Source: a virus
DNA length: 64,000 bases
Strand: one strand, 5' to 3'
Virus record (IMG/VR): IMGVR_UViG_3300042691_021691
Span: 1-64,000 of that record
Of this stretch, positions 2,482-30,205 are shown in pieces. A program made the translations under genes and the position numbers. Numbering within the stretch: position 1 is the stretch's first letter; each line of letters opens with the position of its first letter. The notes below the pieces were generated by a model. The model ran no database searches. It saw nothing but the letters and a program-made list of their open reading frames with translations, and had not been told where the DNA came from.

Positions 2482-2628
2482 GGGTAGATATCGTAGAGGT
2501 ATTATCGCGGTAGGACAAATTCTCGCGTTGCACGTTTACACGCCACATTGTGCTAAAATTTGTAAACGGATAGCTAGAAAACTTATGAGTGAGGGCATAA
2601 GGCAATAATAATATCTCCGATGTCGCCT
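2482..2628 (+). ncRNA. Rod-shaped structured RNA, 6S-like architecture
   Basis: GATATCG/CGATGTC and GAGGTATTAT/ATAATATCTC closing stems, apical CGTTTACA/TGTAAACG stem, central bubble with CTTATG/CATAAG hairpin. Confidence 0.55.
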
Positions 2629-2641
2629 ATTTATACACACT

Positions 2642-2803
2642 ATGAAAAATATAAAGTCGCCGTGTATAAAAATATGTAAATTAAAAAATAATTACTGCAC
2701 TGGATGTTTGCGAACGATTAATGAAATTGCAAACTGGAAAAATTACACACCAGAAGCCAGAGAAGTAATATTAAAACAATTAGAAAATAGGAAGGGTGGC
2801 TGA
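2642..2803 (+). CDS. DUF1289-like small Cys-rich protein
   Basis: MKNIKSPCIKICKLKNNYCTGCLRTINEIANW; SPC..IC...C.GC.RT..EI..W signature. Confidence 0.8.
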   Translation: MKNIKSPCIKICKLKNNYCTGCLRTINEIANWKNYTPEAREVILKQLENRKGG

Positions 2804-2880
2804 GAGGCTCAAAGCAGCGGTTTGCTAAACCGCCGTACGGAATAAAATCTGTACCGAGGGTTCGAATCCCTCCCTTTCCG
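2790..2880 (+). tRNA. tRNA-Ser(GCT)
   Basis: Cloverleaf with long variable arm, anticodon loop TTGCTAA, GGTTCGAATCC. Confidence 0.95.
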
Positions 2881-2896
2881 CTTTGGAGGGATATAA

Positions 2897-3940
2897 ATGA
2901 AAGATAAAATATTAATACTATCTATGGCAGGATTAATGGATTTGCCAGAAGATACTAGACCACTACACGTGTATTTTGCATCACTAAAAGAATGCGTGGT
3001 GCCGCATTACGACACTAAAGTTATATTATATAATTCGTCGGTAACTAGTGAACATACTAACAGACTAGTTATTGAATATGGATTAGAAGATGTCGTAGAA
3101 GTAAAGCAACTGGAAGATATGGAGTTACCAGAGCGTTCATATGAATTTATGAAATCTGTGGACTACTGGGGCAACCGAATTGGACTAGTCATGAATATGA
3201 TGTTCGATTATGCAAAGAATCGTCATTTCTTTGGTGCACGATGGATATTCCAAACCGATACGGATATAGAATTTCTTCCAAATTTTTCTGAAGTATTAGC
3301 GGCAACCGAAAGTATGCGTATGATAAATCCTGCCTTGGTATTAACACAAGCAGGAGATGTATACGAATACAACATTGTAGTTGGTGAGAATGTAGGGCAT
3401 TTCAAAGCGCCTAGACGATTAGAATTATATAATCAAAACGATCCATTGGAACCGAACTGGCAATCATTTAAATTTACACCACAAAAAACTAATACGACTG
3501 GTCCTCTTTATGGACATTTTAATACTCAACAATTAAAAACTAGAAATGATTTCGTGGGATTGACCCAAGAAGCGGCGTTTAGAACTAATTTTAATTGGAT
3601 TCATGCGGTATCATTTATAAAAATACATAACGCAACGGGGTTTGAAATTAAAAATTACGCAACGTCAGAATTGGAAGCGCAATTTCCCGATCAAGTATGG
3701 CAGTTAGAAAATAAAAATTTTGGAATAGGTATAAATAAGGATAAGGGAAGTTTAGTGGTATATGAATTGCACTCGGGAATACATAATTTAATTCAAATAC
3801 AATTAGCAGGCGCACATTCTATGATGAATCATATTAATGGTGGCTGGACAAATGATCACTACAATCCTAGAGCATTAAGCTGTTTAAGTAGTAAATATCC
3901 ACAATATCAACATATTTGGTCACAAGACTATAAGGAGTAA
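2897..3940 (+). CDS. Hypothetical protein, possible GT-A glycosyltransferase
   Basis: 347 aa, GGAGG RBS, DTD motif after a hydrophobic strand. Confidence 0.5.
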   Translation: MKDKILILSMAGLMDLPEDTRPLHVYFASLKECVVPHYDTKVILYNSSVTSEHTNRLVIEYGLEDVVEVKQLEDMELPERSYEFMKSVDYWGNRIGLVMNMMFDYAKNRHFFGARWIFQTDTDIEFLPNFSEVLAATESMRMINPALVLTQAGDVYEYNIVVGENVGHFKAPRRLELYNQNDPLEPNWQSFKFTPQKTNTTGPLYGHFNTQQLKTRNDFVGLTQEAAFRTNFNWIHAVSFIKIHNATGFEIKNYATSELEAQFPDQVWQLENKNFGIGINKDKGSLVVYELHSGIHNLIQIQLAGAHSMMNHINGGWTNDHYNPRALSCLSSKYPQYQHIWSQDYKE

Positions 3941-3945
3941 TTTAT

Positions 3946-4116
3946 ATGCATGGTTGCGAAGTAAAGTTAGTAAATAAGACGGGAGAACATAATTTCGTTC
4001 TACCAAACGGCAAGTCCGTAAGTTTGACACAGGAAGGAATTGAATTATTTAATTCAAATTTAAATGGAAAGCAAATATACGCCCTTACCGAACAAGCAAT
4101 TAGACAGTTGGATTGA
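3946..4116 (+). CDS. Small hypothetical protein (56 aa)
   Basis: AAGGAG RBS; MHGCEVKLVNKTGEHNFVLPNGKSV... Confidence 0.6.
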   Translation: MHGCEVKLVNKTGEHNFVLPNGKSVSLTQEGIELFNSNLNGKQIYALTEQAIRQLD

Positions 4117-4122
4117 TAGGGG

Positions 4123-4151
4123 TTGACAGGTAGAACTCATCGAGTTATACT
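4123..4151 (+). promoter_or_regulatory. sigma70-like promoter
   Basis: TTGACA-17nt-TATACT before tRNA-Leu. Confidence 0.7.
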
Positions 4152-4172
4152 ACATTCATACGATGGGTTTGC

Positions 4173-4256
4173 GCTTCTGTGGTGGAATCGGTATACACAG
4201 CAGACTTAAAATCTGCCGCCTTCACCGGCTTGCGAGTTCGAGTCTCGCCGGAAGCA
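4173..4256 (+). tRNA. tRNA-Leu(TAA)
   Basis: Cloverleaf, anticodon loop CTTAAAA, variable arm. Confidence 0.95.
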
Positions 4257-4271
4257 TATAAACGAGGTTAT

Positions 4272-4865
4272 ATGGTTAAGTTAATTGCTCAAGATGACGA
4301 TAGAGAAGAGTTAATTGCCAATCATTGTGGATTGATTAGACCACCACAACGGCAAGGAACAAATGTAGTAGATGCCCGAGATACGCTGGGAAATGCCATC
4401 GAAATTAAGTCGGGCACTACAAAAACCGCTATCAATATTTTGAACTTAAATCTAAACATTATTAAAAAATACAGAACATATTATTGGTTGATGGGGCAGG
4501 GCGATTATACGTTAGGTCCTTATAATAATAAAGTATATGTATTAACAGAACTATGGGCTGCTCACCCTTCAAATTTGGAATGGTTTTTTTCTAAACACGA
4601 GAACTGGCTAACTGATAGATTAAGTTTGTTAGATGAATTAAATGCTGCTGCAAATCTACATCCACACAAACAAAAGTTGCTAGACTCTATTAAGACCTCA
4701 ATGGTATCTAAAGGTCCTAGTATGAATATGAATAAAATTCGCAATTCAGGATATCAATTAGATCATACCAATAGCAGTGTCGCAACAGAACAGCTTACGG
4801 AATTTATAAAAAATAATCCAATTGGAATTTCGGTAAATAATACAAAAACGCACAACTGGTGGTAA
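4272..4865 (+). CDS. PD-(D/E)XK endonuclease, PvuII restriction enzyme-like
   Basis: VDARDTLGNAIEIKS catalytic motif; IIKKYRTYYW and HPSNLEWFFSKHE resemble R.PvuII blocks (recalled, not searched); start moved downstream of the tRNA (GAGG RBS). Confidence 0.65.
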   Translation: MVKLIAQDDDREELIANHCGLIRPPQRQGTNVVDARDTLGNAIEIKSGTTKTAINILNLNLNIIKKYRTYYWLMGQGDYTLGPYNNKVYVLTELWAAHPSNLEWFFSKHENWLTDRLSLLDELNAAANLHPHKQKLLDSIKTSMVSKGPSMNMNKIRNSGYQLDHTNSSVATEQLTEFIKNNPIGISVNNTKTHNWW

Positions 4866-4870
4866 TACTT

Positions 4871-5059
4871 ATGGCAAAGGCAAAAGAATTGAACGAATCA
4901 TATCGGGTAAGTTATACGGCGCGAGATCGCAAGACCAATGATGATATTATCAATTTGGAAATGAATTGGGAAAATCGCGACCTTGAAGATGTTAAGAAAA
5001 ATCTAAATACGTGGCTAACTGCTATCGGTGTGCCCCTTGACGTAGTAGACAAGAAGTAG
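4871..5059 (+). CDS. Hypothetical protein
   Basis: ORF from ATG 4871. Confidence 0.6.
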   Translation: MAKAKELNESYRVSYTARDRKTNDDIINLEMNWENRDLEDVKKNLNTWLTAIGVPLDVVDKK

Positions 5060-5065
5060 TATAAT
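5037..5065 (+). promoter_or_regulatory. sigma70-like promoter followed by 5' hairpin
   Basis: TTGACG-17nt-TATAAT, then TGTTGGTG-TGA-CGCCAACA. Confidence 0.7.
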
Positions 5066-5095
5066 ACAAGTGTTGGTGTGACGCCAACACAATCT

Positions 5096-5167
5096 GGACC
5101 GCAAGCATTAATGGTGATGCAGGAGGCTTTTAACCTTCAGAACAGGGATCGTTACCCTGGCGGTCCA
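5096..5167 (+). tRNA. tRNA-Lys(TTT), atypical T-loop
   Basis: GGACCGC/GCGGTCC acceptor, anticodon loop CTTTTAA, T-loop ATCGTTA. Confidence 0.85.
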
Positions 5168-5171
5168 CTCT

Positions 5172-5245
5172 GCCCCGGTAGCTAAATGGTGACAGCACTC
5201 GTCTTATAAGCGAGCGATATGTGGGTTCAAGTCCCACCCGGCGCA
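5172..5245 (+). tRNA. tRNA-Ile(TAT)
   Basis: Anticodon arm CTCGT-CTTATAA-GCGAG; GGTTCAAGTCC. Confidence 0.9.
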
Positions 5246-5321
5246 CTTTGACCACAGTAGTAATGATATCTTACTCGTAATCTGGGGACGGTGTGTTAAA
5301 AGTCGTGAGACACACCAACTT

Positions 5322-5395
5322 GGTCCTTTAGCTCAGTCGGTTAGAGCAGCGAACTCATAATTCGAAGTGCGGGGGTTCAAGTCCCTCAAGGACCA
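5322..5395 (+). tRNA. tRNA(CAT), probably Ile2 (lysidine type)
   Basis: Anticodon loop CTCATAA; ileX-like GGTCCTTTAGCTCAG body. Confidence 0.85.
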
Positions 5396-5398
5396 TAT

Positions 5399-5470
5399 GC
5401 ACGTGTCATATAACGGCTATTATCCTAGCCTTCCAAGCTAGAGACGCGGGTTCGACTCCCGCCACGTGCT
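5399..5470 (+). tRNA. tRNA-Gly(TCC)
   Basis: GCACGTG/CACGTGC acceptor, loop CTTCCAA, U73. Confidence 0.92.
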
Positions 5471-5485
5471 TATTCAGGAGAACAT

Positions 5486-5917
5486 ATGAAAGTATATAAG
5501 AAAATACGAAACTTTACTAAAGCAGAGTTGGAAGAAGAAGTAGGAGAATATTTTCAAAATGCACAAACATTTAAAAAATTTCCTAATCTAGCAAACACTC
5601 CTGAAGAGTTAGTTCGGTTAATAAAAGACGCAGAAGTAGCAGTATTAACAAAAAAGCAATTGATGTCACTTGATAATTCTGACGTAGGCGATGTTCTTAA
5701 ATCAGATGATCCGTATAAACAAGCGACACAGATAGCGAAAGAAAATGAAAGAAATATTAATAAAATTTTTAAGGGTATAATTAATAATTCTACATTTCCT
5801 ATGCCGATAGTAATAAATAAATCAGGTAATTTATATTTAATGGCGGGAAATACAAGACTATGTGCGTTTGCTGCATTAAATATGACAATACCTGTAAAAA
5901 TAATAATTAGTAGTTAA
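5486..5917 (+). CDS. ParB/Srx-like domain protein
   Basis: MPIVI...LMAGNTRL motif. Confidence 0.55.
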   Translation: MKVYKKIRNFTKAELEEEVGEYFQNAQTFKKFPNLANTPEELVRLIKDAEVAVLTKKQLMSLDNSDVGDVLKSDDPYKQATQIAKENERNINKIFKGIINNSTFPMPIVINKSGNLYLMAGNTRLCAFAALNMTIPVKIIISS

Positions 5918-5928
5918 CTTATATATTT

Positions 5929-6465
5929 ATGCCTAATGTCTTTTTAATATCCGATACACATTTTGGTCACGCAAACATTTGTAAGTTTTTGCGAACCGAT
6001 GGTACAAAATTACGACATTGGGATGACGTAGATGAGATGGACAAAGCTCTTATCAACAATTGGAATAATGTTGTAGGAGTAAATGATAAAGTATACCATT
6101 TAGGTGACGTATTTATTAATCGTAAACATCGATTTATATTAAATCATTTGAATGGAAAAAAGGTCTTGATTAAGGGCAATCACGATATCTTTGATTTAGA
6201 GAATTACACTCCATTTTTTAAAGACATCAGAGCATATCACAAATTAGATAAATGTATCTTAAGTCATATTCCGATTCATCCACGGCAACTTGGGCGGTTC
6301 AAGGGTAACATTCACGGACACTTACATGAACACATCGTATCAGACAGTCAGGGAAAGCCAGATCCAAGATACATGACAGTTTGTGTTGAACATATCAACT
6401 ACACCCCGATAGAACTCTCAGTTGCTCTGCGTCATTTTGATCAAGTAGAAATTAACGAAATGTAG
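5929..6465 (+). CDS. Calcineurin-like metallophosphoesterase
   Basis: SDTHFGH, HLGD, GNHD, HGHLH motifs. Confidence 0.9.
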   Translation: MPNVFLISDTHFGHANICKFLRTDGTKLRHWDDVDEMDKALINNWNNVVGVNDKVYHLGDVFINRKHRFILNHLNGKKVLIKGNHDIFDLENYTPFFKDIRAYHKLDKCILSHIPIHPRQLGRFKGNIHGHLHEHIVSDSQGKPDPRYMTVCVEHINYTPIELSVALRHFDQVEINEM

Positions 6466-6474
6466 TAAAATTTA

Positions 6475-6533
6475 ATATTTATAGTTGTATATAAAGGTTT
6501 ATGTAACGGTAATACTGTTATGTAAACCTTTAT
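6475..6533 (+). promoter_or_regulatory. ATATTTATA late-type motif followed by a long hairpin
   Basis: ATATTTATA at 6475; inverted repeat ATAAAGGTTTA.../...TAAACCTTTAT at 6491-6533. Confidence 0.5.
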
Positions 6534-6544
6534 TGTTTTGTACT

Positions 6545-6661
6545 ATGTTTTATTTCGATGCGTTTCTTGGATGTATGGTCGGTACTTTAATATGTTTTGC
6601 GTTCTTACCTGTTATTGTATGGTTCTGGGGAAAGGTTTTTCATAACATTAACCGAGAATGA
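6545..6661 (+). CDS. Small membrane peptide (38 aa)
   Basis: MFYFDAFLGCMVGTLICFAFLPVIVWFWGKVFHNINRE; TGA overlaps the next ATG. Confidence 0.45.
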   Translation: MFYFDAFLGCMVGTLICFAFLPVIVWFWGKVFHNINRE

Positions 6662-7155
6662 ATATGGCAAAGGATAGCGGACTAGATCCGAAAATGCAGT
6701 TAAAAAAGACACAAATTGAGGCATCTATTGAATTAAAGCGTCAAGAATTATTGGCGGATTTGGAGTTAAAGAAAACAGAAACAGATTTAAAGCGATTAGA
6801 AGGAAATTCTACTGCAAAGGAAGTAGCAAGCAAAGTTATTGGTAAAACGGCAGTACCTTGGATTGTTCTTTTAGTAATTGTGGGCGTAGTAGCTAGCGCA
6901 TTTCTCCCGTCCTCATCACTACCCGCAGTAATAGGATTAGTATCAACGGCAGTAATGGCAATGATTAGTATGTTGGCAGGGATTACAGGCACGACAGAAA
7001 AGGAAGAAAAGCCTGAAATTGAAATTATCAAGAGTCTTATTAAGCAGCTGGATGAAACTCGCGAAGCAATGAACGTAGAAATTGATGGTGATAATGTATT
7101 GGTATCAAAGGGAGACACTACAATGAAAACCTCTAATAAGAAAAGAGGTAGATAA
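6658..7155 (+). CDS. Membrane protein (2 TM), lysis-cluster associated
   Basis: Coiled N-terminus plus two hydrophobic helices. Confidence 0.65.
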   Translation: MNMAKDSGLDPKMQLKKTQIEASIELKRQELLADLELKKTETDLKRLEGNSTAKEVASKVIGKTAVPWIVLLVIVGVVASAFLPSSSLPAVIGLVSTAVMAMISMLAGITGTTEKEEKPEIEIIKSLIKQLDETREAMNVEIDGDNVLVSKGDTTMKTSNKKRGR

Positions 7156-7157
7156 TA

Positions 7158-7544
7158 ATGTTTATACCAAATAAAACCTTTAATGCAATAAAAGTAAGTA
7201 TTTTATCAACTATTATGATATTGCTTTTAGTTATTGCAGCAGAATCCGTTTTATATATTCGCCTTTCACAAAATACTAATAAAAAAATAGAAACACTGAG
7301 CGCACAACTGGATTCTGTATCAAATCAAACAAACACATTTAAGGTGACATCATCTAATAAACACAAAATTGTAGACAACCAAATAACCGATGCGGTCACA
7401 TCAATTGCAGAAATATCCACTGGAATTGACGCAATCAATACACAGATAGCAAATAACAAAAGAATGATTGATATTTTAGTTGATAACCAATGTGATGTTC
7501 GACCTTATTATCTAGATAAGCGACTAGCAGAATTTTGCAAATAA
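7158..7544 (+). CDS. TM-anchored coiled-coil protein (i-spanin-like candidate)
   Basis: N-terminal TM, coiled coil, C-terminal cysteines; next to lysins. Confidence 0.45.
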   Translation: MFIPNKTFNAIKVSILSTIMILLLVIAAESVLYIRLSQNTNKKIETLSAQLDSVSNQTNTFKVTSSNKHKIVDNQITDAVTSIAEISTGIDAINTQIANNKRMIDILVDNQCDVRPYYLDKRLAEFCK

Positions 7545-7560
7545 TATAACGGAGATAGTC

Positions 7561-7887
7561 ATGTCTGACGAAGTTACAAATTCTAAAAGTCAACTTGTAG
7601 AAAAAATTGTTTTTGGTGCCGTACCTATTCTTTTATCGTGTATAGGTTATTTGCTGGTGGCACTCAATGATATGGAAAACAAAATTACGGTTCTTGAAAG
7701 TAAAGTTGCGGTAGTAGTATCGGCGGAAAATAAACCAATTCCTCCCGACGGTACGACGATAGCAATGGAACAAATTCGCGCCCAAGCAACAGAAGCTCGT
7801 GCTGAACTTAAACTGGAAGCGGCAATGGCTCGCGCCGAACTTGATAAGCGAATAACGGTTTTGGAAGATAAAACAAACCGACGATAG
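7561..7887 (+). CDS. TM-anchored coiled-coil protein
   Basis: One TM plus heptads; GGAG RBS. Confidence 0.6.
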   Translation: MSDEVTNSKSQLVEKIVFGAVPILLSCIGYLLVALNDMENKITVLESKVAVVVSAENKPIPPDGTTIAMEQIRAQATEARAELKLEAAMARAELDKRITVLEDKTNRR

Positions 7888-7896
7888 GAGTAATAT

Positions 7897-8223
7897 ATGG
7901 CTAAGACTGTAGATTTAACAAAGTTACCAGAAGCAAACACTATGGTATCAAAGTTTACGCAAATTTTTAAAGATAATAATGACTGGAATGAAAAAACTAT
8001 TATTGGATTTATGTCATTTACAGTTATGGTTATTGTTGCTGCAATTGATTTAATCACGGGATTGGAAGGAAAAAATTTAGAAATTAAAGATTATATTTAT
8101 AATTCATTTGTGATGTTAACCCTTGGATCATTTGGTATTGCTGGATTAGAGAAATTTTCACCGGTCGCAAAAGCTAAAGCAGAAGCACAATTAAATAATT
8201 CATATGAAGAAATTGTAGAATGA
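7897..8223 (+). CDS. Small 2-TM membrane protein (holin candidate)
   Basis: Two TMs, upstream of lysins. Confidence 0.45.
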   Translation: MAKTVDLTKLPEANTMVSKFTQIFKDNNDWNEKTIIGFMSFTVMVIVAAIDLITGLEGKNLEIKDYIYNSFVMLTLGSFGIAGLEKFSPVAKAKAEAQLNNSYEEIVE

Positions 8224-8834
8224 TGCGGTGGGTTTGGTTATTACTCATTGCAACATCTCTACCCGCACAAGATACGGTGCGAGTAAAACATGCAAATTAT
8301 CAATCTGTATTTTCTAGATCATTGCGATATCCAATTTTAGTAGAATGGTCAACAACTCGGCGGGAGTTACAATGTTCTATACCCGCAAGACGAACTGATA
8401 AATTTTTACCAGACCCATATCTGCAAAAAGATAGTGATATAAACAATGATTATATTAGGTCTGGATTTGATAGAGGGCATATTTCTCCTGCAGGAGATTC
8501 AAGATGTAATCAACGCGATATGGATGAAAGTTTTTATTATACCAATATGGCTCCGCAGTATCCAGGACTAAATCGCGGTCAATGGAAAAATTTAGAAGAG
8601 TGGACTCGTATATTAGCTGTAGAAAATGATTCGCTGAATATTATGGCGGGATGTATTGGTGAGGCAGGAAGAATTAATCGTGTTGCTATACCAACGCATT
8701 GCTGGAAAGTAATTAAAGTAAAAAATGAAGTTCATGCATATGTGTTTCCAAATGTACCACAGAGAACTGCGACATTACAGCAGCATAAGGTTTCGTTAGA
8801 TAGCATAAGAATATTAACTAAATTGAAACTCTAA
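8220..8834 (+). CDS. DNA/RNA non-specific endonuclease (NucA/EndoG type) with signal peptide
   Basis: FDRGHISPAGD, TNMAPQ...LNRGQW..LE motifs. Confidence 0.9.
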   Translation: MMRWVWLLLIATSLPAQDTVRVKHANYQSVFSRSLRYPILVEWSTTRRELQCSIPARRTDKFLPDPYLQKDSDINNDYIRSGFDRGHISPAGDSRCNQRDMDESFYYTNMAPQYPGLNRGQWKNLEEWTRILAVENDSLNIMAGCIGEAGRINRVAIPTHCWKVIKVKNEVHAYVFPNVPQRTATLQQHKVSLDSIRILTKLKL

Positions 8835-8846
8835 CGGAGAATTGTT

Positions 8847-9443
8847 ATGGCGTTTACTAGAGAACAAATAGAAGCGGCAGTAAAAGCCAAAGGTTATGCG
8901 TGGTTTGAAGGGGCGAAAGATTTTGATGTGAATATTGTGGGAGTCAGAAATATGATTCCAGGAAAAAAAGTTACAAATTTATTTGACGACTGGATCACCG
9001 TTTCATATAAAGAAAACGGAGCTTGGAAATTTCATATATGGGCTTGTACCACAGACCCAGGAAATAAAGCAGTAAAAGAATTTCATAATCCGAATGGCGT
9101 AGCCAGATTGATACCCAATCAATATAGAGGATCTCATATGATTGGATTGCATCAAGGAAAATATGAAGCATTGAGACAACAAAAACCTGTCAAGGTTTGG
9201 AGAGATAAAAATAAAGATAGTGTATTCGATGAAACTTCCATCGACGAAGGAATTTTTGGTATAAACATCCATAGATCAAACCCAACAACAGAATCTCAAT
9301 TTGTAGAAAATTGGAGTGAAGGATGTCAGGTATTTAAGCGAGTAAAAGATTTTAATTTATTTATGGAAATTTGTAACAAAGCAAAGGTTATACACGGAAA
9401 CAGTTTTACCTATACGTTGATTACCTCTGGAGATATAAAATAA
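8847..9443 (+). CDS. Putative cell-wall enzyme, L,D-transpeptidase-like catalytic motif
   Basis: GINIH...WSEGCQV. Confidence 0.55.
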   Translation: MAFTREQIEAAVKAKGYAWFEGAKDFDVNIVGVRNMIPGKKVTNLFDDWITVSYKENGAWKFHIWACTTDPGNKAVKEFHNPNGVARLIPNQYRGSHMIGLHQGKYEALRQQKPVKVWRDKNKDSVFDETSIDEGIFGINIHRSNPTTESQFVENWSEGCQVFKRVKDFNLFMEICNKAKVIHGNSFTYTLITSGDIK

Positions 9444-9444
9444 T

Positions 9445-10044
9445 ATGAATATAGATAAATTAAAAGGGCATGTTCCTGATGCCGTATTAGCACAAATTCC
9501 AGAGGTTATGGAAAAATTTCAAATTAATACGCCATTGAGATTATGTCATTTCTTAGCGCAATGTGCCCATGAATCTGGAAACTTCAAGGCAGTTAATGAA
9601 AATTTAAATTATGGTCCAGTGGCATTGATGAGCACTTTTAAGAAATATTTTCCAGATTTACCAAAGGCGGAAGCATACGCAAGAAAGCCGGAAAAAATTG
9701 CAAATCTTGTATACGGTGCTCGTATGGGCAATGGACCCGAAGCAAGTGGTGACGGATGGAAATTTCGTGGAAGAGGGTTTATTCAATTAACGGGCAAAGT
9801 TAATTATGAATCATTTGACAAGGTAGTCTCGGAAAATTTAATAGAAACCCCAGATTTAGTTGCAACTAAATATCCGTTATTATCTGCTGCTTGGTTTTGG
9901 AATTCCAGATCATTAAATACTTTAGCCGATAAAGGTGCAACCGACGCCGATATAACTGCCATAACTAAAAAAGTAAATGGTGGCACTCACGGATTAGATG
10001 ATAGAATTGCTAAATTTAAAAAATTTCACAGTGTAATGAAATAA
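9445..10044 (+). CDS. GH19 chitinase-like endolysin
   Basis: FLAQCAHES, ENLNY, FRGRGFIQLTG, ITKKVNGG. Confidence 0.92.
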   Translation: MNIDKLKGHVPDAVLAQIPEVMEKFQINTPLRLCHFLAQCAHESGNFKAVNENLNYGPVALMSTFKKYFPDLPKAEAYARKPEKIANLVYGARMGNGPEASGDGWKFRGRGFIQLTGKVNYESFDKVVSENLIETPDLVATKYPLLSAAWFWNSRSLNTLADKGATDADITAITKKVNGGTHGLDDRIAKFKKFHSVMK

Positions 10045-10090
10045 AAACTATTGTTTTATTTAATTATTAGATAATTAATTATATACATAC

Positions 10091-10119
10091 TTGACAAAGG
10101 TAATCCGGTCTATTACATT
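10091..10119 (+). promoter_or_regulatory. sigma70-like promoter
   Basis: TTGACA-17nt-TACATT. Confidence 0.65.
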
Positions 10120-10134
10120 TATCTTATGTAGCTT

Positions 10135-10205
10135 GGGTCGGTAAGCTAACGGGAAACTGGGGCCTTTGCAAGGCTCACTTGTGGGTTCGATTCCCACCCG
10201 ATCCA
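10135..10205 (+). tRNA. tRNA-Cys(GCA), divergent copy
   Basis: Anticodon loop TTGCAAG, GGTTCGATTCC. Confidence 0.85.
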
Positions 10206-10210
10206 TAAAT

Positions 10211-10400
10211 ATGTTAGTTGTCAGCCACGGAATCTGGTGGTTAAACCGTAAAAGTAAAAGACCGTGCGGTTCGACTGACATAATCCTCTGTAGTTGAGCC
10301 ATATAAGGCACGGGCACACGAAAGTGAGCAGCTCCACCTGTATGGCGGTCGGGGCGAGTAAGGGCCTTTACTCTTATGGCAACTATAACCGAACCCCATA
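10211..10400 (+). ncRNA. Unassigned structured RNA (two domains)
   Basis: ATGTTAGTTG/CGACTGACAT; TGTAGTTG/CAACTATA; CAC-GAAA-GTG tetraloop; GC-rich and non-coding. Confidence 0.5.
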
Positions 10401-10418
10401 ACGGAAAAGTTGCAATAC

Positions 10419-10492
10419 GGACGGTTAGCTCAGTTGGTTAGAGCAACGCTTTTACACAGCGAAGGTCGGGGGTTCGAATCCCTCACTGTCCA
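10419..10492 (+). tRNA. tRNA-Val(TAC)
   Basis: Cloverleaf, loop TTTACAC. Confidence 0.95.
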
Positions 10493-10516
10493 TACACTTA
10501 ACAAGGAGAAATAGTT

Positions 10517-10861
10517 ATGGCACATGGTAATGTTATTGTTGTAAATACTGTCACCGATGAAATTAAGTCAGTTCCCGTAGGATTCTCGTGGACCGTTTTG
10601 TTTTGGGGATGCTTTCCTGCACTATTTCGTCAAGATTGGAAAAATTTTGGAATTATGGCGGGAACTTTAATAATTTCTACGTTCTTGCTGGTAGCATTCA
10701 TTCCACTCGTAGTATTTGCATTTATTTATAATGATAAGATGTGTTTAAAGGATTTGCTCAATAATGGATGGAAGATTAAGGAATATACTGGAAGTAAAAA
10801 CTTAAATGTAGTTGGGCAATCTGTTGGATATAATCTTGATAAATTTATGTTGAATAAGTAA
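10517..10861 (+). CDS. Membrane protein, DUF2628/HrgC-like
   Basis: VGFSWTVLFWGCFPALFRQDW motif. Confidence 0.65.
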   Translation: MAHGNVIVVNTVTDEIKSVPVGFSWTVLFWGCFPALFRQDWKNFGIMAGTLIISTFLLVAFIPLVVFAFIYNDKMCLKDLLNNGWKIKEYTGSKNLNVVGQSVGYNLDKFMLNK

Positions 10862-11093
10862 TACGGCAGGACGAGTCTTACTCGGTTAGTGGTCGTATGG
10901 AAAGGCATCTGAAAACTGATAACGTATATGGGGTTCACCCTAGGACACAGCTAACAACTCTCCGAGTTGAGGATGAATAACGACGATGTATAGGGGTGGT
11001 CATGACCCAACGATTTTGGGGTGATACACAGATAGGAGTTGCAACTACCTATCACCTGATTGCAGGATAACACCTTTCCCGCTGTATTACTTA
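10855..11093 (+). ncRNA. Unassigned multi-stem structured RNA (~235 nt)
   Basis: 13-bp closing stem TAAGTAATACGGC/GCTGTATTACTTA, GGAAAGG/CCTTTCC, several internal hairpins. Confidence 0.55.
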
Positions 11094-11105
11094 ATATTAA
11101 AATAT

Positions 11106-11675
11106 ATGCCACATAATGTTTCACTCACAACACACAGATACGTTTATGTAGTTTCTGATTTGGTTATTCGCGATGGTAACGAGAATCTAATTCCGTGTGT
11201 ATGGTTTGGTATTGGATCCACACCACAGCGTAGTCTTGCGTGTCATATTTTATTAGAAAATGGTGCGATGTTAGTAGATATTCCACTTCATGCATTACGT
11301 TGGAAACAAACCGATATATCTGTAGCATTATCAGATGTTGTGGCGTGGGATTGTTATGGATGGGATGTGGAAATATATCAGCCAGAATATATAAGTGGAT
11401 TGTCATGTGAAATACTAGATGTTACGCATAAAAAAATTGAAGGGGTTGGAACTTTATGGTTTGCAATCGATTTTATAAATAATGGGTTTAGTGATGCCCC
11501 GCAGCAGCATAAACATTTATGGATAGTTGCACGAAATGATGGAGCCTTAATGTTACTACCGCAGGATAGATTATTAATTCACGAGTCAAGTTTTACAGAA
11601 GTAAACGGCATTCCAAAAATCAAGAGACAAGATAATGTTTGGATTGCCGAAATGATTGATAATGTTATTAAATGA
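11106..11675 (+). CDS. Hypothetical phage protein
   Basis: 189-aa ORF. Confidence 0.7.
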   Translation: MPHNVSLTTHRYVYVVSDLVIRDGNENLIPCVWFGIGSTPQRSLACHILLENGAMLVDIPLHALRWKQTDISVALSDVVAWDCYGWDVEIYQPEYISGLSCEILDVTHKKIEGVGTLWFAIDFINNGFSDAPQQHKHLWIVARNDGALMLLPQDRLLIHESSFTEVNGIPKIKRQDNVWIAEMIDNVIK

Positions 11676-11693
11676 TAATTGTTAATGGTTTTT

Positions 11694-11775
11694 GCTCTTG
11701 TGGTGGAATGGTATACACGGCAGTCTCAAAAACTGCTTCCCATCGGGATTGTGAGTTCGAGTCTCACCGAGAGCA
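11694..11775 (+). tRNA. tRNA-Leu(CAA)
   Basis: Loop CTCAAAA, variable arm. Confidence 0.95.
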
Positions 11776-11797
11776 CTAATTTAGTTATGGAGAATTT

Positions 11798-12367
11798 ATG
11801 AAAAATTTTAGTCAAATAATTACAGAACATTTAAGCGACAAAGTACAAAATGGCTACGGTCCAGTTTATGATAGCATTTTAAAAAACTTACGACATAAGC
11901 CATTAAATATATTGGAAATTGGAATCGGTACCGTGATTCCAGATGCACCGTCAAATATGGCGTGGCAGGGTGGTAATTATAGACCTGGTGCTTCATTACG
12001 AGCATTCAAAGAATATTTTCCAAATGCTATGATTTATGGTGGGGATATTCAAGACGATTGTATGTTTGAAGAGCCAAGAATTAAAACATTTAAGTTTGAT
12101 TCTACTAATCTATCCCAGTGTAATGCTGCATTGATGGATATGACGTTTGATATTATTATTGACGATGGGTTGCACACAACACCGGCGCAATTAAAAACGT
12201 TTAGAAATTTGTGGCATAGAGTTAACGATGGTGGATTCTATTTTATGGAAGATGTTTGGTCACCATTGTATGAAGAATGGCAAACTGCATTTGGTGATAT
12301 TGATGCGGAAAAGTGGGATTATAAGAGTAACAGCGCAAAGTATACATTTATAGTATTTTCTAAGTAA
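11798..12367 (+). CDS. Class I SAM-dependent methyltransferase (sugar O-methyltransferase-like)
   Basis: ILEIGIG, DIIIDDGLH, GGFYFMED. Confidence 0.85.
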   Translation: MKNFSQIITEHLSDKVQNGYGPVYDSILKNLRHKPLNILEIGIGTVIPDAPSNMAWQGGNYRPGASLRAFKEYFPNAMIYGGDIQDDCMFEEPRIKTFKFDSTNLSQCNAALMDMTFDIIIDDGLHTTPAQLKTFRNLWHRVNDGGFYFMEDVWSPLYEEWQTAFGDIDAEKWDYKSNSAKYTFIVFSK

Positions 12368-12368
12368 T

Positions 12369-12439
12369 ACCTCGATGGTGTAATGGAAGCACTACAGTCT
12401 TCGGAACTGTATGTGAGGGTTCAAATCCTTCTCGGGGTA
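12369..12439 (+). tRNA. tRNA-Arg(TCG)
   Basis: ACAGT-CTTCGGA-ACTGT anticodon arm; GGTTCAAATCC. Confidence 0.85.
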
Positions 12440-12529
12440 CTTCTAAATTATAAGGGCGGAAAATTATCCGAGTCCACCCCGCCAGAAGTGTAATGTAGGA
12501 GACTCTCGGTCCTACTATAATTTAGATAT

Positions 12530-12614
12530 GGACAGTTGGCAGAGTGGTCTATTGCAGCAGTCTTGAAAACTGCCGTGCCGCAAGGTACCGAGAGTTCGAA
12601 TCCCTCACTGTCCG
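12530..12614 (+). tRNA. tRNA-Ser(TGA)
   Basis: Loop CTTGAAA, long variable arm. Confidence 0.95.
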
Positions 12615-12618
12615 TTGT

Positions 12619-12691
12619 GCGTCGATAGCTCAATTGGTAGAGCACTGGTCTCCAAAACCAGCGGTTGGGGGTTCGACTCCCTCTCGGCGTG
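12619..12691 (+). tRNA. tRNA-Trp(CCA)
   Basis: Loop CTCCAAA. Confidence 0.95.
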
Positions 12692-12694
12692 TAG

Positions 12695-12774
12695 GCGCTT
12701 ATGGCGGAATTAGCAGACGCACCAGTCTTAGGAACTGGCGGGTAACCGTGGGGGTGCAAGTCCCTCTAAGCGCA
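12695..12774 (+). tRNA. tRNA-Leu(TAG)
   Basis: Loop CTTAGGA, T-loop TGCAAGT. Confidence 0.9.
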
Positions 12775-12779
12775 TACTT

Positions 12780-12852
12780 GCGGGTGTAGCTCAGTTGGTA
12801 GAGCACTTCCTTGCCAAGGAAGATGTCACGGGTTCGACCCCCGTTACCCGCT
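12780..12852 (+). tRNA. tRNA-Gly(GCC)
   Basis: Loop TTGCCAA. Confidence 0.95.
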
Positions 12853-12865
12853 CTTTAATAAATTT

Positions 12866-13252
12866 ATGAATGATAAATCAATACAAAATATAAGAAGTAA
12901 TGCATTAACGTATGGGACCACGCCAAATGCTCCTGCCTCAATATATCCAGAAAATATAGATGAGTGGAAAGCTAATGTATCTCCTACATTTAAGCATTAT
13001 TTCAAAGAAAGATATGATGAAATAGTAAAGTTGTATGAACGGTTAGCAGAAGAATATGCAATAAATAAAATGTTATACGAATGCCAAATTTCGTTTCAAC
13101 CAAAAATTGGTGAAACTTATTATTTGTATAATACGCCAAGCAAAGGTGCATTCATTTCGCTAGTTTCTCCTGAGTCTGCTTTCTGGGGTGGTTTTGTAGG
13201 ATCGTTTAAATTGAATTCGCAGTATGCGTGGGAAAAGGTAACGTCACTGTAG
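12866..13252 (+). CDS. DUF2452-like protein
   Basis: FQPKIGETYYLY...FISLVSP..W pattern; stop codon inside tRNA-Phe. Confidence 0.65.
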   Translation: MNDKSIQNIRSNALTYGTTPNAPASIYPENIDEWKANVSPTFKHYFKERYDEIVKLYERLAEEYAINKMLYECQISFQPKIGETYYLYNTPSKGAFISLVSPESAFWGGFVGSFKLNSQYAWEKVTSL

Positions 13253-13315: not shown

Positions 13316-13339
13316 TTTTATTTAAATATTGAGGTTATT

Positions 13340-19115: not shown

Positions 19116-19120
19116 AATTT

Positions 19121-19218: not shown

Positions 19219-19232
19219 CTTAGTTATTTGAT

Positions 19233-19551: not shown

Positions 19552-19558
19552 GTATTGC

Positions 19559-19630: not shown

Positions 19631-19647
19631 TTAAATAAGGAGTATAA

Positions 19648-20292
19648 ATGGTATCAATCAAAGTTTATATTAGTGGAAACGAATTTTCCAGTCCATGGGT
19701 ATCCAATTGGACTGGAACTTTATCTTTAATATCTAATCTGCCGCCAAATCAATTAAAATTTAATTATAAATTTATCAATGAAAAAGATAAATTTTTGGAA
19801 ACTAATCTGGCAATTGCACAAGACGCAGAAGAATTACAAAGTCTTGATTGGTTGGTATTTTTAAGTAATGAAATTTTGTGGCCTGCTGATAGTTTTCTGC
19901 GACTAATAAAAAATGGTTCGTATGATGCTATCAGCGGATGGCATTTAAATGAAAGTAATACTACTGATATAATCGAGCGATTGGATACGACATTACTACA
20001 TAGAAATAATGCTATTAATTATATGTCGCCCGATGAGATTGTTAAGAAACCGCTACCGTTTAAAGTGGAATATACAAACATGAATTTCTTTGCGGTAAAA
20101 GCAAATACGTTTTCTCAACTTACTCAACCATATTTTAAACAAGTTATTTTAGAAGAAACTACCTCAATTTCTAATAATAGTGTAATAGTTCCTTGGTATT
20201 ATTCATTTTGCAATAGATTGAATGCGATTGGAAAGGAAATATTTGTAGATCCTATGATTAGAGTTTCCAAGATTTCTAGATCATTACTATAG
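19648..20292 (+). CDS. GT-A-like hypothetical protein
   Basis: WLVFLSNEILW...ISGW...FCNRL...IFVDP pattern seen in phage GT2-like proteins. Confidence 0.5.
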   Translation: MVSIKVYISGNEFSSPWVSNWTGTLSLISNLPPNQLKFNYKFINEKDKFLETNLAIAQDAEELQSLDWLVFLSNEILWPADSFLRLIKNGSYDAISGWHLNESNTTDIIERLDTTLLHRNNAINYMSPDEIVKKPLPFKVEYTNMNFFAVKANTFSQLTQPYFKQVILEETTSISNNSVIVPWYYSFCNRLNAIGKEIFVDPMIRVSKISRSLL

Positions 20293-20311
20293 ACTTTTGA
20301 ATAGTGCCATT

Positions 20312-20367
20312 ATATTTATTAGTGTATTCCAAACGGTTATGTTGAACGTAACAATAACCGTTTGGAG
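20312..20367 (+). promoter_or_regulatory. ATATTTAT motif plus long 5' hairpin
   Basis: TTCCAAACGGTTAT/ATAACCGTTTGGAG inverted repeat overlapping the RBS of 20376. Confidence 0.5.
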
Positions 20368-20375
20368 TTTTTATT

Positions 20376-20570
20376 ATGGAGACAAAATGTAAAAGATTTT
20401 GCTCGGATAAAATTTGTGCAATGTTATTTGGATTGGGATTTTTAACTGGTCATTGTATAACCGGGCATGGACATGTTTCTATGTATTGCGTAGTTATTGG
20501 TATGATATCGATTGGCGCGTTTTACCTATCTACAAAAATAACGGAAAAATTGTTTCTTAAGCGGTTTTAA
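20376..20570 (+). CDS. Small membrane protein
   Basis: Two TMs. Confidence 0.55.
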   Translation: METKCKRFCSDKICAMLFGLGFLTGHCITGHGHVSMYCVVIGMISIGAFYLSTKITEKLFLKRF

Positions 20571-20597
20571 AAACATTTTTCAGTAGATAATAATCAT

Positions 20598-20927
20598 ATG
20601 GATATAATATCATTTTTATCAAAAGAAGCACCATTAGCAGGCATGATTGCGGTTATTGGTGGTATTATATTAAAAATAATAGAAAAAAAGATAACCAATC
20701 CAACGGATGAAATTAATTCTAGTATTGCACTGAGAAAAGAATTGCGAGAGGAATTGGATTCAGTTATCGAACGCCTTAGTGAATTGCAAAATGAGGTTAA
20801 TGAATGGCGAGAAAAATACTACACACAGTTACAAATAACTTCAGAATTAAAAATAGAAATCGCTGTATTGAGAGAAAAATTGGAAGGTAAACTAATGGAT
20901 ATGGAAAATGGCTGCGAGCAACAGTAA
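20598..20927 (+). CDS. TM-anchored coiled-coil protein
   Basis: N-terminal TM plus heptads. Confidence 0.65.
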   Translation: MDIISFLSKEAPLAGMIAVIGGIILKIIEKKITNPTDEINSSIALRKELREELDSVIERLSELQNEVNEWREKYYTQLQITSELKIEIAVLREKLEGKLMDMENGCEQQ

Positions 20928-26417: not shown

Positions 26418-26446
26418 TTGACAATGTATTTAATATAGCATATATT
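26418..26446 (+). promoter_or_regulatory. sigma70-like promoter overlapping ATATTTATA
   Basis: TTGACA-17nt-TATATT. Confidence 0.65.
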
Positions 26447-26466: not shown

Positions 26467-26706
26467 ATGCCAGAGAAAGAGTTCAAGCGAGTAGTTGATG
26501 TTAGATTATCACCATCTTCAGTATTTATACTTGTACAAATTTTATTGGTACATTATAAACTAACTGGAATTTTTGTTTCTAGCTGGATGTGGGCATTAGC
26601 CCCCTTATTGTTAGTATGTTGCTTAGGTTTACTTGGATTAATTTACAATTTGATTATTAATTTTGTATATTATTTAAATAAACCATTTAATAAGCTTAAA
26701 CGATAA
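26467..26706 (+). CDS. Small membrane protein
   Basis: KLTG...SWMWALAPL motif. Confidence 0.6.
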   Translation: MPEKEFKRVVDVRLSPSSVFILVQILLVHYKLTGIFVSSWMWALAPLLLVCCLGLLGLIYNLIINFVYYLNKPFNKLKR

Positions 26707-26707: not shown

Positions 26708-27043
26708 GGGCCTGACATGGTTTCGACGGGGTGTAGAAGATTAAACTTTGTATCTCGTTTGGTAAGACGAGTAAAACAGACCAAAATATTTAACTGGCAA
26801 TAATCAATTAGCCCTCGCTGCGTAAGCAGCTTGACAAATTAGTCCAACCCACGTAAGATTAATTTGTTCATTAACGTGGTATAGTCTTAGGGAGGGACCG
26901 TAGCTAAGATGATACACAACAGTCCTATGCCAATCTTACGTTTGTTAGTTGTCGAGAGATTGGCGAAGCAATACAACTGACTATATACATAAACATTTAA
27001 TACGAAGCTATCTCGGACGTGGGTTCGAATCCCACCAGGTCCA
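26708..27043 (+). ncRNA. ssrA: tmRNA; tag peptide (A)GNNQLALAA
   Basis: GGGCCTGACATGGTTTCGAC 5' end; GGTTCGAATCCCACCAGGTCCA 3' end with G3-U70; tag ORF 26796-26825. Confidence 0.95.
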
Positions 27044-27067
27044 CTTAAATTTGAGGTTACATATAAA

Positions 27068-28277: not shown

Positions 28278-28280
28278 CAT

Positions 28281-28808
28281 ATGGGAGCAGAAACTAAAAA
28301 ATGCATAGTATTGAATTCTACATACGAACCTCTTACGATAGTTACCGTTAAGAGAGCTATTTCTTTAATAGTTCAAGGAAAAGCAATACTAGTCGAAGAA
28401 TATAAAAATGTAAAAGTTAGAAGCAGTAATCAATCTTTTTCTGCACCTCTGACAATTGCATTGAAATATTATATTAATAGCAGATTGGTATTTAAACGAC
28501 CGGCTCCGTTGAATAACAGAAATCTGAGCGTGAGAGACAATAATACATGTCAGTATTGTGGCAGAACTAAGTCACAATTAACCGCAAAAGAAAAGATGAC
28601 ACGAGATCATATTATCCCGAAAGATAAAGGCGGGATAGATGATTGGTTAAATGTTGCACTATCATGTGATACATGTAATAATAAAAAGGGCAACAAATAT
28701 ATGAGTGAAAAAAATATGAAATTGCTAAAAGAACCCACGGTCCCAACGGTATTTGAATTGTGGGCTAGACAAGCAAAAATATCTCCAACCAGTATACTAC
28801 AAGACTAA
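28281..28808 (+). CDS. HNH endonuclease (McrA-like)
   Basis: VLNSTYEPL, RDNNTCQYCG, TRDHIIP..KGG...W.N...C..CN..K. Confidence 0.9.
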   Translation: MGAETKKCIVLNSTYEPLTIVTVKRAISLIVQGKAILVEEYKNVKVRSSNQSFSAPLTIALKYYINSRLVFKRPAPLNNRNLSVRDNNTCQYCGRTKSQLTAKEKMTRDHIIPKDKGGIDDWLNVALSCDTCNNKKGNKYMSEKNMKLLKEPTVPTVFELWARQAKISPTSILQD

Positions 28809-28817
28809 GGAGCAGTT

Positions 28818-29441
28818 ATGGATGAAATGGTTATTAAAGTAGAACAAAGTTATAATAAATTTATGCAGTTAATTGAAGCAGATCCGCGCTCAGAACTACT
28901 GAAGAAGATGTATGAAAATTTCTCGGATCAGCTATCGATTGCTCCTGCATCGTCTAAGTATCATTATCATAATGCATTTCCAGGAGGCTATCTCTGTCAC
29001 GTAGTTCACGTAGCCGAGATTGCCGTGAAGTTAACTAAAGTGTATAGTGAAATGGATGGTAACGTAGACTATACTAAAGAAGAATTGGTATTTGCCGCGC
29101 TACATCATGATCTTGGCAAGCTAGGAACAGAAGATACTCCATATTACTTGGATCAAGATTCTGATTGGCATCGTAAGCGTGGAGAAATGTATAAGCACAA
29201 TGATGCTATTCAGTATATGAAAGTGACGGATAGGGCACTATATACTCTACAAAAATATAATATTCCAGTAACAGAAAAGGAATTTATTGCTATCAAGCTT
29301 TCCGATGGATTGTATGATGACAGTAATAAATCATATTTAGTAAATCATTCGGTGTTTCCTATGAAAACAAATCTGCCATATATTATTCATTGGGCGGATC
29401 ATATGGCTACATCGGCGGAAAGAGATTCTGCAAGATTTTAA
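28818..29441 (+). CDS. HD-domain hydrolase (YhaM-like)
   Basis: APAS..YH.AFPGG...H, HHDLGK, HWAD. Confidence 0.85.
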   Translation: MDEMVIKVEQSYNKFMQLIEADPRSELLKKMYENFSDQLSIAPASSKYHYHNAFPGGYLCHVVHVAEIAVKLTKVYSEMDGNVDYTKEELVFAALHHDLGKLGTEDTPYYLDQDSDWHRKRGEMYKHNDAIQYMKVTDRALYTLQKYNIPVTEKEFIAIKLSDGLYDDSNKSYLVNHSVFPMKTNLPYIIHWADHMATSAERDSARF

Positions 29442-29464
29442 TGGTTATGTAATATTTATTTATA

Positions 29465-29517
29465 GTCTCGCACCAACAATGGTGGAGACAACCAGGTATG
29501 CTCACTAATGAGATACC
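29465..29517 (+). promoter_or_regulatory. Two-hairpin leader of hsp20
   Basis: GTCTC..CACCA/TGGTG.GAGAC and GGTAT.CTCA/TGAG.ATACC, after ATATTTAT. Confidence 0.45.
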
Positions 29518-29535
29518 ATTTCTTAGGAGTCTTAT

Positions 29536-30027
29536 ATGACTAAAAATTCTTTATTGGTACGTCCGAGAAGTTGGGTGGGATCGGTTTTTAATGAACGTGA
29601 TTCGTTTGTTAATTCATTTGATCAAATTTTCGATGAAATGCTTAAGACACAGTTCCCAGAAGCATTTACCGAAATTGGCGCAAATCCAATTGGTAGAGCA
29701 GCGTATCCAAAGGTTAATGTAGTAGCAAAAGAAAATTCATTGGTTATTGAGGCGGAGCTAGCAGGACTGAAAAAGGAAGAAATTGATCTAGATGTTAAGG
29801 ATACGATTCTAACAATTTCAGGAAAAGCTACTTCCACCGAAGCGGCAGAAAATACGGTTTATGTAATTAGAGAATTAAAGCGATCTGGTTTTAGTCGTGC
29901 ATTTGTGCTTGGTAAACAATTTGATACTTCTAAAATTAGTGCAACATTTGAAAACGGGTTACTGACAATTGAAATTCCAAGATTTATTAAGGAAGACAGT
30001 AACCCACAAAAGGTTACGATTAAGTAA
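29536..30027 (+). CDS. Hsp20/alpha-crystallin small heat shock protein
   Basis: YPKVNV...AELAGL...FSRAF...ATFENGLLTI. Confidence 0.92.
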   Translation: MTKNSLLVRPRSWVGSVFNERDSFVNSFDQIFDEMLKTQFPEAFTEIGANPIGRAAYPKVNVVAKENSLVIEAELAGLKKEEIDLDVKDTILTISGKATSTEAAENTVYVIRELKRSGFSRAFVLGKQFDTSKISATFENGLLTIEIPRFIKEDSNPQKVTIK

Positions 30028-30046
30028 AAACCTTAAATAACTAGGA

Positions 30047-30147
30047 GGGCTAACGTAATGATTCGTAGTTTTAAATCAGCAGTAGTTAATCACAAAAACT
30101 ATAACCGATATAACTAGGAGGTGATCCACATCGGTTATATTTAGCCC
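30047..30147 (+). ncRNA. Hairpin RNA displaying a complement of the 16S rRNA 3' end (contains 19-codon ORF 30058-30117)
   Basis: TATAACCGAT/ATCGGTTATA stem around AGGAGGTGATCCA; outer GGGCTAA/TTAGCCC stem. Confidence 0.6.
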
Positions 30148-30170
30148 AAAACGTTAACCATGGAGATACT

Positions 30171-30205
30171 AACGGGGTCATTGAGAACCACTCTTTGACC
30201 CCGTT
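30171..30205 (+). terminator. Terminator-like hairpin
   Basis: AACGGGGTCA/TGACCCCGTT. Confidence 0.6.

Follow-up and report, generated by a model that had tools for sequence, protein, structure and literature searches.

Several of the gaps in a viral transfer RNA (tRNA) array probably encode structured non-coding RNAs of new families. The window, that is, the whole 64,000-base stretch of DNA analysed here, comprises bases 1-64000 of the 92,845-base IMG/VR virus record IMGVR_UViG_3300042691_021691, which is estimated to be ~47% complete. Its array holds 30 tRNA genes on the + strand, with small open reading frames (ORFs) and eight larger gaps, labelled A to H, between them. We consider it likely that a minimum of three gaps (C, G and H), and probably also the 5' module of gap B, correspond to structured non-coding RNAs that lie on the tRNA strand, are freed by tRNA maturation, and represent new families of the kind exemplified by rnaC and rnaD of phage T4. 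We take the source of the window to be an uncultured freshwater T4-like myovirus, because it encodes a T4 DsbA-like protein (17922-18176; Pfam PF11126), the record encodes T4-type baseplate wedge proteins, and the closest cultured phage, Microcystis phage Mel-JY01, has a baseplate protein of only 40% amino-acid (aa) identity. The array and the elements with comparative support are the following.

2790-19630, + strand: tRNA array, 30 tRNA genes with small ORFs and gaps between; ARAGORN and the Rfam tRNA model agree
10207-10418, + strand: gap B, between tRNA-Ala and tRNA-Val, with a conserved 5' part
10858-11092, + strand: RNA C, a multibranch RNA of ~235 nucleotides (nt) with a closing helix of 13 base pairs (bp); 7 distinct homologues (alignment A12)
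18671-18846, + strand: RNA G (form G1), 176 nt; 7 distinct homologues (alignment A11)
19231-19553, + strand: RNA H, a ~323-nt multibranch RNA between tRNA-Gly and tRNA-Met; one diverged relative, contig L004

Homologues were gathered in several ways. A query of IMG/VR with the DsbA-like protein returned 76 loci, 32 of them at 68-78% identity; ten sampled loci carried 5-27 tRNAs within the fetched stretch (19-27 in seven of the ten), and flanks were added from 16 larger records among these relatives. DNA-pattern scans of IMG/VR used a degenerate pattern for a peptide gene described below and a 23-mer of C, and the scan of one metagenome yielded two contigs, L003 and L004. The protein encoded at 19648-20292 and its alignment had no relative in IMG/VR or GTDB.

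RNA C is well supported as a structured RNA by its seven distinct sequences. In the consensus of 60 pairs, 97.1% of cells are paired compared with 93.5% in shuffles, and 10 pairs show changes on both sides where 4.4 are expected. None of 500 shuffles reached the observed pairing or covariation, and slid controls were only 31-54% paired. The strand is fixed by several G.U pairs that never vary, and variable modules are inserted at two places. Across the seven sequences the element follows tRNA-Met, tRNA-Gly or an ORF and precedes tRNA-Leu(CAA), tRNA-Thr or an ORF; in most relatives it starts 1-2 nt past a tRNA and ends ~10-40 nt short of the next one. In the window, C and tRNA-Leu(CAA) are separated by the gene at 11106-11675, which appears to have been inserted there. 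This gene encodes 189 aa (PHROG 3704) and has more than 100 homologues, mostly in high-GC phages without tRNA arrays. As a route to homologues of C the protein family proved a false lead, its carriers being mostly devoid of tRNAs and of an upstream RNA.

RNA G is likewise well supported by an alignment of seven distinct sequences, and it is strictly tied to a single tRNA. The predicted fold consists of a 5' H-type pseudoknot, three hairpins, and a long-range helix with a G-rich and a C-rich strand that stops just before tRNA-Gln(UUG). Paired cells amount to 87%, against 77% in shuffles and 37-44% in slid controls. Changes on both sides affect 26 of 49 pairs (11.9 expected), including both pseudoknot stems, and 0 of 500 shuffles equalled this result. 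G1 always lies 0-6 nt upstream of tRNA-Gln, whatever is found on its 5' side, which in the window is a short gene.

18578-18670, + strand: gene for a highly basic peptide, 30 aa, starting MPHPKKCGKGRRK, with an AGGAG Shine-Dalgarno site; conserved in IMG/VR contigs

The peptide is encoded in 24 IMG/VR contigs (L183-L205 and the window among the carriers) at 90-100% aa identity and by 17 distinct ORF sequences. Variation touches 23 of the 30 codons, with the residue changed in only 4; codon differences are synonymous in 1108 cases and nonsynonymous in 204, and nucleotide differences at codon positions 1, 2 and 3 number 178, 86 and 1281. Because the variation is mostly synonymous, this is a real gene under purifying selection, and the basic peptide that had been picked out from the letters alone is therefore genuine, with a frame that starts at 18578. 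Searches of Pfam and NCBIfam revealed no family at E<=10, the PDB gave one insignificant match (E=2), and comparison with 1.8 billion representatives gave no match, peptides so short being rarely called as genes. The product may be an RNA- or ribosome-binding micro-protein. In the contigs, the gene is nearly always wedged between two tRNAs, with 15-23 nt on its upstream side.

In about 20 of the 24 peptide contigs the peptide gene is followed by a spacer of 176-230 nt and then by tRNA-Gln(UUG). This arrangement favours a different explanation, in which the elements are not free RNAs at all. They would instead be cis-acting leaders or untranslated regions (UTRs), with A regulating a gene for a DUF1289 protein, E regulating or timing the tRNA-Glu operon, and F and G forming the 5' and 3' UTRs that govern how the peptide mRNA is translated or how stable it is. 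An mRNA excised between two tRNAs would indeed need a protective 3' structure, and in these ~20 contigs G follows the peptide stop codon. However, L207 and L209 carry G1 without the peptide, still directly before tRNA-Gln, and G1 is never seen without that tRNA. Conversely, the peptide occurs without G in L186, L192 and L194. G is therefore tied to tRNA-Gln and not to the peptide. Furthermore, C and H are flanked by tRNAs in most contexts and have no ORF to regulate, F is not conserved, and no riboswitch or leader family of Rfam was matched. We regard the leader or UTR explanation as possible for the elements at large but as the less probable one. The free-RNA interpretation of G can accommodate part of it, as G apparently doubles often as the 3' UTR of the peptide gene. 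In every carrier no more than 0-6 nt separate the end of the C-rich 3' strand of G from tRNA-Gln, so that G is specifically coupled to this tRNA; most likely the tRNA-Gln precursor is its target or partner, or tRNA-Gln serves as its 3'-end signal.

Other relatives hold a second covarying RNA, G2, of 217-230 nt, in the slot between the peptide gene and tRNA-Gln.

L185, L187-L189, L191, L196-L200 and L204 (e.g. L199:726-947): carriers of G2; 13 of 49 pairs covary in 10 sequences

Homology between G1 and G2 was considered and rejected, since the G1 covariance model misses G2 even with filters off. Position and general architecture are what the two have in common, and nothing more.

RNA H is supported as a structured RNA by one diverged relative. 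Its predicted fold is closed by a 21-bp helix, on whose 3' strand a hairpin is stacked, and the z-score of the minimum free energy (MFE) of the whole gap is -2.4 to -2.7. Contig L004 is 82% identical to window positions 19356-20625. Identity is 96.5% over the 3' 198 nt of H and 100% in the tRNA-Met that follows, against 74.6% in the adjacent 214-aa gene, where third codon positions reach 63.6%. Seven substitutions separate the two versions of H: four lie in loops of the predicted fold, one replaces an A-U by a G-U pair, and two make up a compensatory exchange of G-C for A-U (19440/19479). The probability that seven random substitutions break no predicted pair of H is 0.008. A BLAST-level search of 42 related, more distant records found nothing, and a 23-mer from H had no match in IMG/VR.

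For gap B, the 5' part matches L186 and L192 upstream of tRNA-Val (nhmmer E 3.7e-17, query bases 3-124). Identity is high over ~10208-10290, about the first 85 nt; in these contigs the conserved part is joined to other modules, and the 3' half of B is unique. The 5' module of B probably encodes a structured RNA. In L186 this module is fused to a further one, which indicates that spacers are assembled from modules; the stem-closed module concerned, ~120 nt long (L186:4295-4415 and L190:2981-3117), is shared by one Pro-to-Val and one Ser-to-Thr spacer.

A census of tRNA-to-tRNA spacers in the relatives returned 76 distinct spacers of 90-460 nt lacking a Shine-Dalgarno-led ORF, which fell into 38 clusters. 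One conserved RNA among them, K, measures 209-238 nt, lies between tRNA-Lys(UUU) and tRNA-Leu(UAA) in 10 relatives, and covaries at 14 of 54 pairs. K was not found in the record that contains the window, and none of C, G1, G2 and K matches Rfam.

L094:7763-7993, L115:6550-6758 and 8 others: examples of K

The arrays of this clade thus hold a patchy, modular collection of structured RNA cassettes. At the place of tRNA-Ser(GCT) in the window, ARAGORN assigns the anticodon ACT to the tRNA-Ser of L090, L094, L097 and others, a difference that is either real or a prediction artefact.

Patchy presence and modular composition are also what would be expected if some or all of the gaps were of no service to the phage and merely carried along in the array, as debris of evolution (decayed tRNAs or scars of recombination) or as selfish cassettes such as small mobile inverted-repeat elements, above all in the case of D, F and the 3' half of B. 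Contig L003 fits this picture. It is 100% identical to window positions 17812-20121 (2310 nt), with a different tRNA order beyond, and the switch to that different, denser order (on the L003:1-372 side) coincides precisely with the first base of tRNA-His, as if members of the population had recombined at tRNA boundaries. In addition, terminal stems look like terminal inverted repeats, and D, F and G show no folding signal. Against such an origin, paralogy among the gaps was rejected, no gap being repeated anywhere in the 92.8-kb record. The idea that they are tRNA remnants was also rejected: only chance matches of 8-10 nt to the 30 tRNAs of the array were seen, and neither ARAGORN nor RF00005 detected a further tRNA in any gap. 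Finally, C, G and H display compensatory changes and invariant G.U pairs, which indicates selection on a single-stranded molecule of the + strand and not on duplex DNA. We therefore think it unlikely that debris or selfish cassettes account for some or all of the gaps.

Tests applied to all eight gaps, which were defined on a gene map made from ORFs and tRNAs, complement the comparative evidence. All eight were recovered where the sequence-only reading had placed them, inside the + strand tRNA array and on the same strand as the tRNAs. They are GC-enriched as it had stated, with values of 0.38-0.50, whereas ORFs have 0.345 and the ordinary intergenic stretches of that region 0.21-0.30. At the gathering threshold, Rfam 15 identified only tRNAs and the transfer-messenger RNA (tmRNA) in the window, and relaxing the cutoff to E<=5 across 31 kb, or to E<=10 under lax filters for two sub-regions, still gave the gaps no match. 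Their suspected position outside known families is thus borne out as far as Rfam 15 is concerned, and covariation is present. A blastn search with B, C, D, F, G and H (A and E were not in that search) against 50,697 phage records returned nothing. Whole-gap MFE z-scores ranged from -2.4 to 0 for candidates and from -1.6 to -3.1 for ordinary intergenic controls; as the controls scored as well as the candidates, this measure was dropped as a discriminator. A simple end-to-end pairing of the two ends of each gap, compared with shuffles, singled out H (p=0.002), E (p=0.006), B (p=0.008) and A (p=0.022), while C, D, F and G did not exceed chance. The proposal that the gaps are closed by long stems consequently holds for the first four and, in that test, fails for the others. 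Note however that the closing helix of C is backed by covariation although C fails this simple test.

The remaining gaps and their immediate neighbours are as follows.

2435-2462, + strand: sigma-70-like promoter (TTGACA, 16 nt, TATATT) ahead of gap A
2469-2641, + strand: gap A, a leader of ~173 nt that runs from the promoter to the DUF1289 gene
2642-2803, + strand: DUF1289 protein gene, 53 aa (Pfam PF06945, E 4.3e-19)
13836-14016, + strand: gap D, before tRNA-Asn; GC content (0.47) is its sole support
18173-18201, + strand: sigma-70-like promoter ahead of gap E
18208-18342, + strand: gap E, a 135-nt promoter-proximal element
18416-18577, + strand: gap F, a 162-nt spacer between tRNA-Glu and the peptide gene; unsupported

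The promoter pattern TTGACA-N16-18-TATAWT has five sites in the window, all on the + strand, against 0.25 expected, and gaps A and E are each directly preceded by one of them. That both begin right behind strong promoters favours a cis-acting role for these two in particular, and most simply they are the 5' leaders of their transcription units. Gap A contains an interrupted helix of 17 bp (~2485-2503 paired with ~2608-2624) and has an MFE z-score of -1.2. It is a plausible 5' UTR or leader. No homologue of it was found, and DUF1289 genes in relatives lack such a leader, which speaks against a regulatory attachment of A to this gene. The first gap of the sequence-only reading turned out to be partly coding, as 2642-2803 is the DUF1289 gene itself. 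The last 14 nt of this ORF overlap the start of tRNA-Ser (2790-2881), and it has no Shine-Dalgarno site; in relatives the DUF1289 gene comes directly after another ORF and before tRNA-Met. Gap E, with a 9-bp closing helix and an end 4 nt before tRNA-Glu, is a plausible structured element. Other leaders between promoter and tRNA in the window appear to be only ~10-25 nt long, as judged from promoter and tRNA coordinates. The sole relative of E is L003, in which it is 100% identical.

Gap D has an MFE z-score of -0.2 and an end-to-end duplex p of 0.21, and no homologue of it was found. The position of gap F is occupied in relatives by 15-23 nt, by an ORF, or by an unrelated stem-closed element. 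D and F may be non-functional spacer. L194 and L106 have a different element of 121-125 nt ahead of their peptide gene, whose 12-bp closing stem shows compensatory changes. Overall, comparative evidence backs C, G and H as well as the 5' part of B. The approximately eight structured RNAs originally envisaged divide into three that are well supported (C, G and H), one that is partly so (B), two that are plausible (A and E), and two without support (D and F).

How such RNAs would be produced follows a simple scheme, in which co-transcription, processing, stability and every downstream function are what we infer. From the anatomy of the array and the precedent of T4, the RNAs would be transcribed together with the tRNAs from sigma-70-like phage promoters, and the tRNA-maturation machinery of the host would free them from the shared precursor. 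The RNase P cut at the 5' end of the next tRNA would create the 3' end of the RNA, and 3'-end processing of the preceding tRNA, or the start of transcription, would create its 5' end. Terminal helices would leave recessed ends, which should make the RNAs stable. Release by tRNA-processing enzymes had been proposed before, and the positions fit: C and G have tRNAs as their direct neighbours in relatives, G with the short distance to tRNA-Gln already described.

A number of observations weigh against the interpretation of the gaps as free structured RNAs. D, F and G lack a thermodynamic signal, and the candidates fold no better than the intergenic controls. No diverged homologue turned up for A, D, E or F. 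The alignments are small (7-10 sequences) and their members phylogenetically related, which inflates the significance obtained from shuffles. Support for H comes from a single diverged and partial homologue that reaches neither the 5' 125 nt nor the closing helix. The three contigs with the peptide and without G (L186, L192 and L194) leave only 7 nt between the peptide gene and the next tRNA. Many relatives lack C, G, B or K, and none of the four is therefore essential. Lastly, discrete stable transcripts are themselves something that we infer from the genomic arrangement. Conservation, covariation, strand and adjacency to tRNAs are direct observations, and on these our preference for structured RNAs is built.

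The closest parallel is found in T4 itself. In its genome (NC_000866), rnaC (species 1, 139 nt) and rnaD (species 2, 119 nt) come directly after tRNA-Arg in the tRNA cluster. Like them, the RNAs described here are small, structured, placed inside a T4-type tRNA cluster on the tRNA strand, and abut a tRNA. H also resembles rnaC in having a hairpin beside the 3' strand of its terminal helix, which in rnaC is T-arm-like. Unlike rnaC and rnaD, the RNAs of the window do not lie at the end of the array but are spread through it; they are also more numerous and, at 176-323 nt, larger. G differs further in its pseudoknot and in having tRNA-Gln as a fixed partner. Searches with rnaC and rnaD using nhmmer against the window and ~1 Mb of relatives gave no match at E<=10, and neither T4 RNA is modelled in Rfam. 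By these comparisons, C, G and H would be of the same kind as the T4 species 1 and 2 RNAs and would constitute new families. The function of rnaC and rnaD is still unknown (PMC9697503).

Comparison with other RNAs known from or near phage arrays leads to the same placement. Theta ribozymes, minimal ribozymes of gut phages that resemble those of hepatitis delta virus (HDV), occur beside phage tRNA genes and have been proposed to aid tRNA maturation (PMC10879173). They lie within 1 nt of the 3' end of a tRNA and fold into the HDV double pseudoknot (PMC10879173). G, unlike these, is located 5' of its tRNA, and the 4 nt between S2-5' and S1-3' leave no room for P3, a hairpin of the nested HDV fold (P1, P1.1, P2, P3); the HDV-family models of Rfam had no match in the gaps. 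The long terminal helix with internal loops of A and H is reminiscent of 6S RNA, a long rod whose central bubble imitates an open promoter, and neither 6S (RF00013) nor YrlA (RF02553) was matched in Rfam at E<=5 across the 31 kb, the folding signal of A being weak as given above. ROOL RNAs are ~580 nt long. The Rfam models of GOLLD and ROOL, which we take to be RF01998 and RF03087, match no gap at the gathering threshold or at E<=5-10. Both are structured RNAs whose role in phages and prophages is unknown and which often occur close to tRNA islands, and members of GOLLD often exceed 800 nt (PMC12286853). At only 176-323 nt, the RNAs of the window differ from both.

The sequence-only reading had gone further and combined about eight RNAs, 30 tRNAs, a tmRNA and the basic peptide into one coherent kit for taking over the host. 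Its inventory of 30 tRNAs and a tmRNA is accurate, both being called by ARAGORN and Rfam.

26708-27046, + strand: tmRNA, tag GNNQLALAA (Rfam RF00023, 134.9 bits; also called by ARAGORN)

Just upstream of the tmRNA gene, a consensus promoter at 26418-26446 drives a 79-aa ORF (26467-26706) that stops 1 nt before it. A coordinated set of RNAs directed at host RNA polymerase or ribosomes, or acting as decoys for anticodon nucleases, seems to us very improbable. Its attraction lies in the co-location with tRNAs, tmRNA and basic peptide, in the rnaC-like hairpin on the 3' strand of the terminal helix of H, and in the proposal that phage tRNAs counter tRNA-targeting defences (PMC10264068). The 6S, YrlA and tRNA-like families were unmatched, and no anticodon-loop mimic was seen by eye, no systematic search having been made. 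A58 is part of the canonical T-loop consensus, and the hairpin loop of H lacks it. The elements are inherited independently and not as a set: their patchy, modular distribution among related phages means that they do not constitute one fixed kit, and this portion of the earlier proposal is not supported.

What the additional stable RNAs of phage tRNA clusters do has been a question ever since the description of T4 species 1 and 2, and GOLLD and ROOL pose it again. Several compact RNA families (176-323 nt) are available in the phage clade examined here, supported by covariation or, in the case of H, by sequence constraint. The module composed of G, tRNA-Gln and the basic peptide is the most interesting lead, as G is strictly tied to one tRNA and usually to a conserved micro-protein, and this fixed three-part arrangement gives handles that were absent for rnaC and rnaD of T4, namely binding, RNase P processing and structure. 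G might work as a ribonucleoprotein with the co-encoded 30-residue peptide. More broadly, and only as a tentative proposal, G and its positional counterpart G2 could be dedicated partners of tRNA-Gln(UUG) whose pseudoknotted 5' domain controls maturation, modification or use of this tRNA, within arrays that serve as a reservoir of new RNA classes (C, G1, G2, H and K). If this is true, G would be a phage-encoded, isoacceptor-specific regulator of tRNA supply. GC-rich gaps in the AT-rich tRNA arrays of phages are a productive source of new RNA classes, only about half of those in the window holding up.

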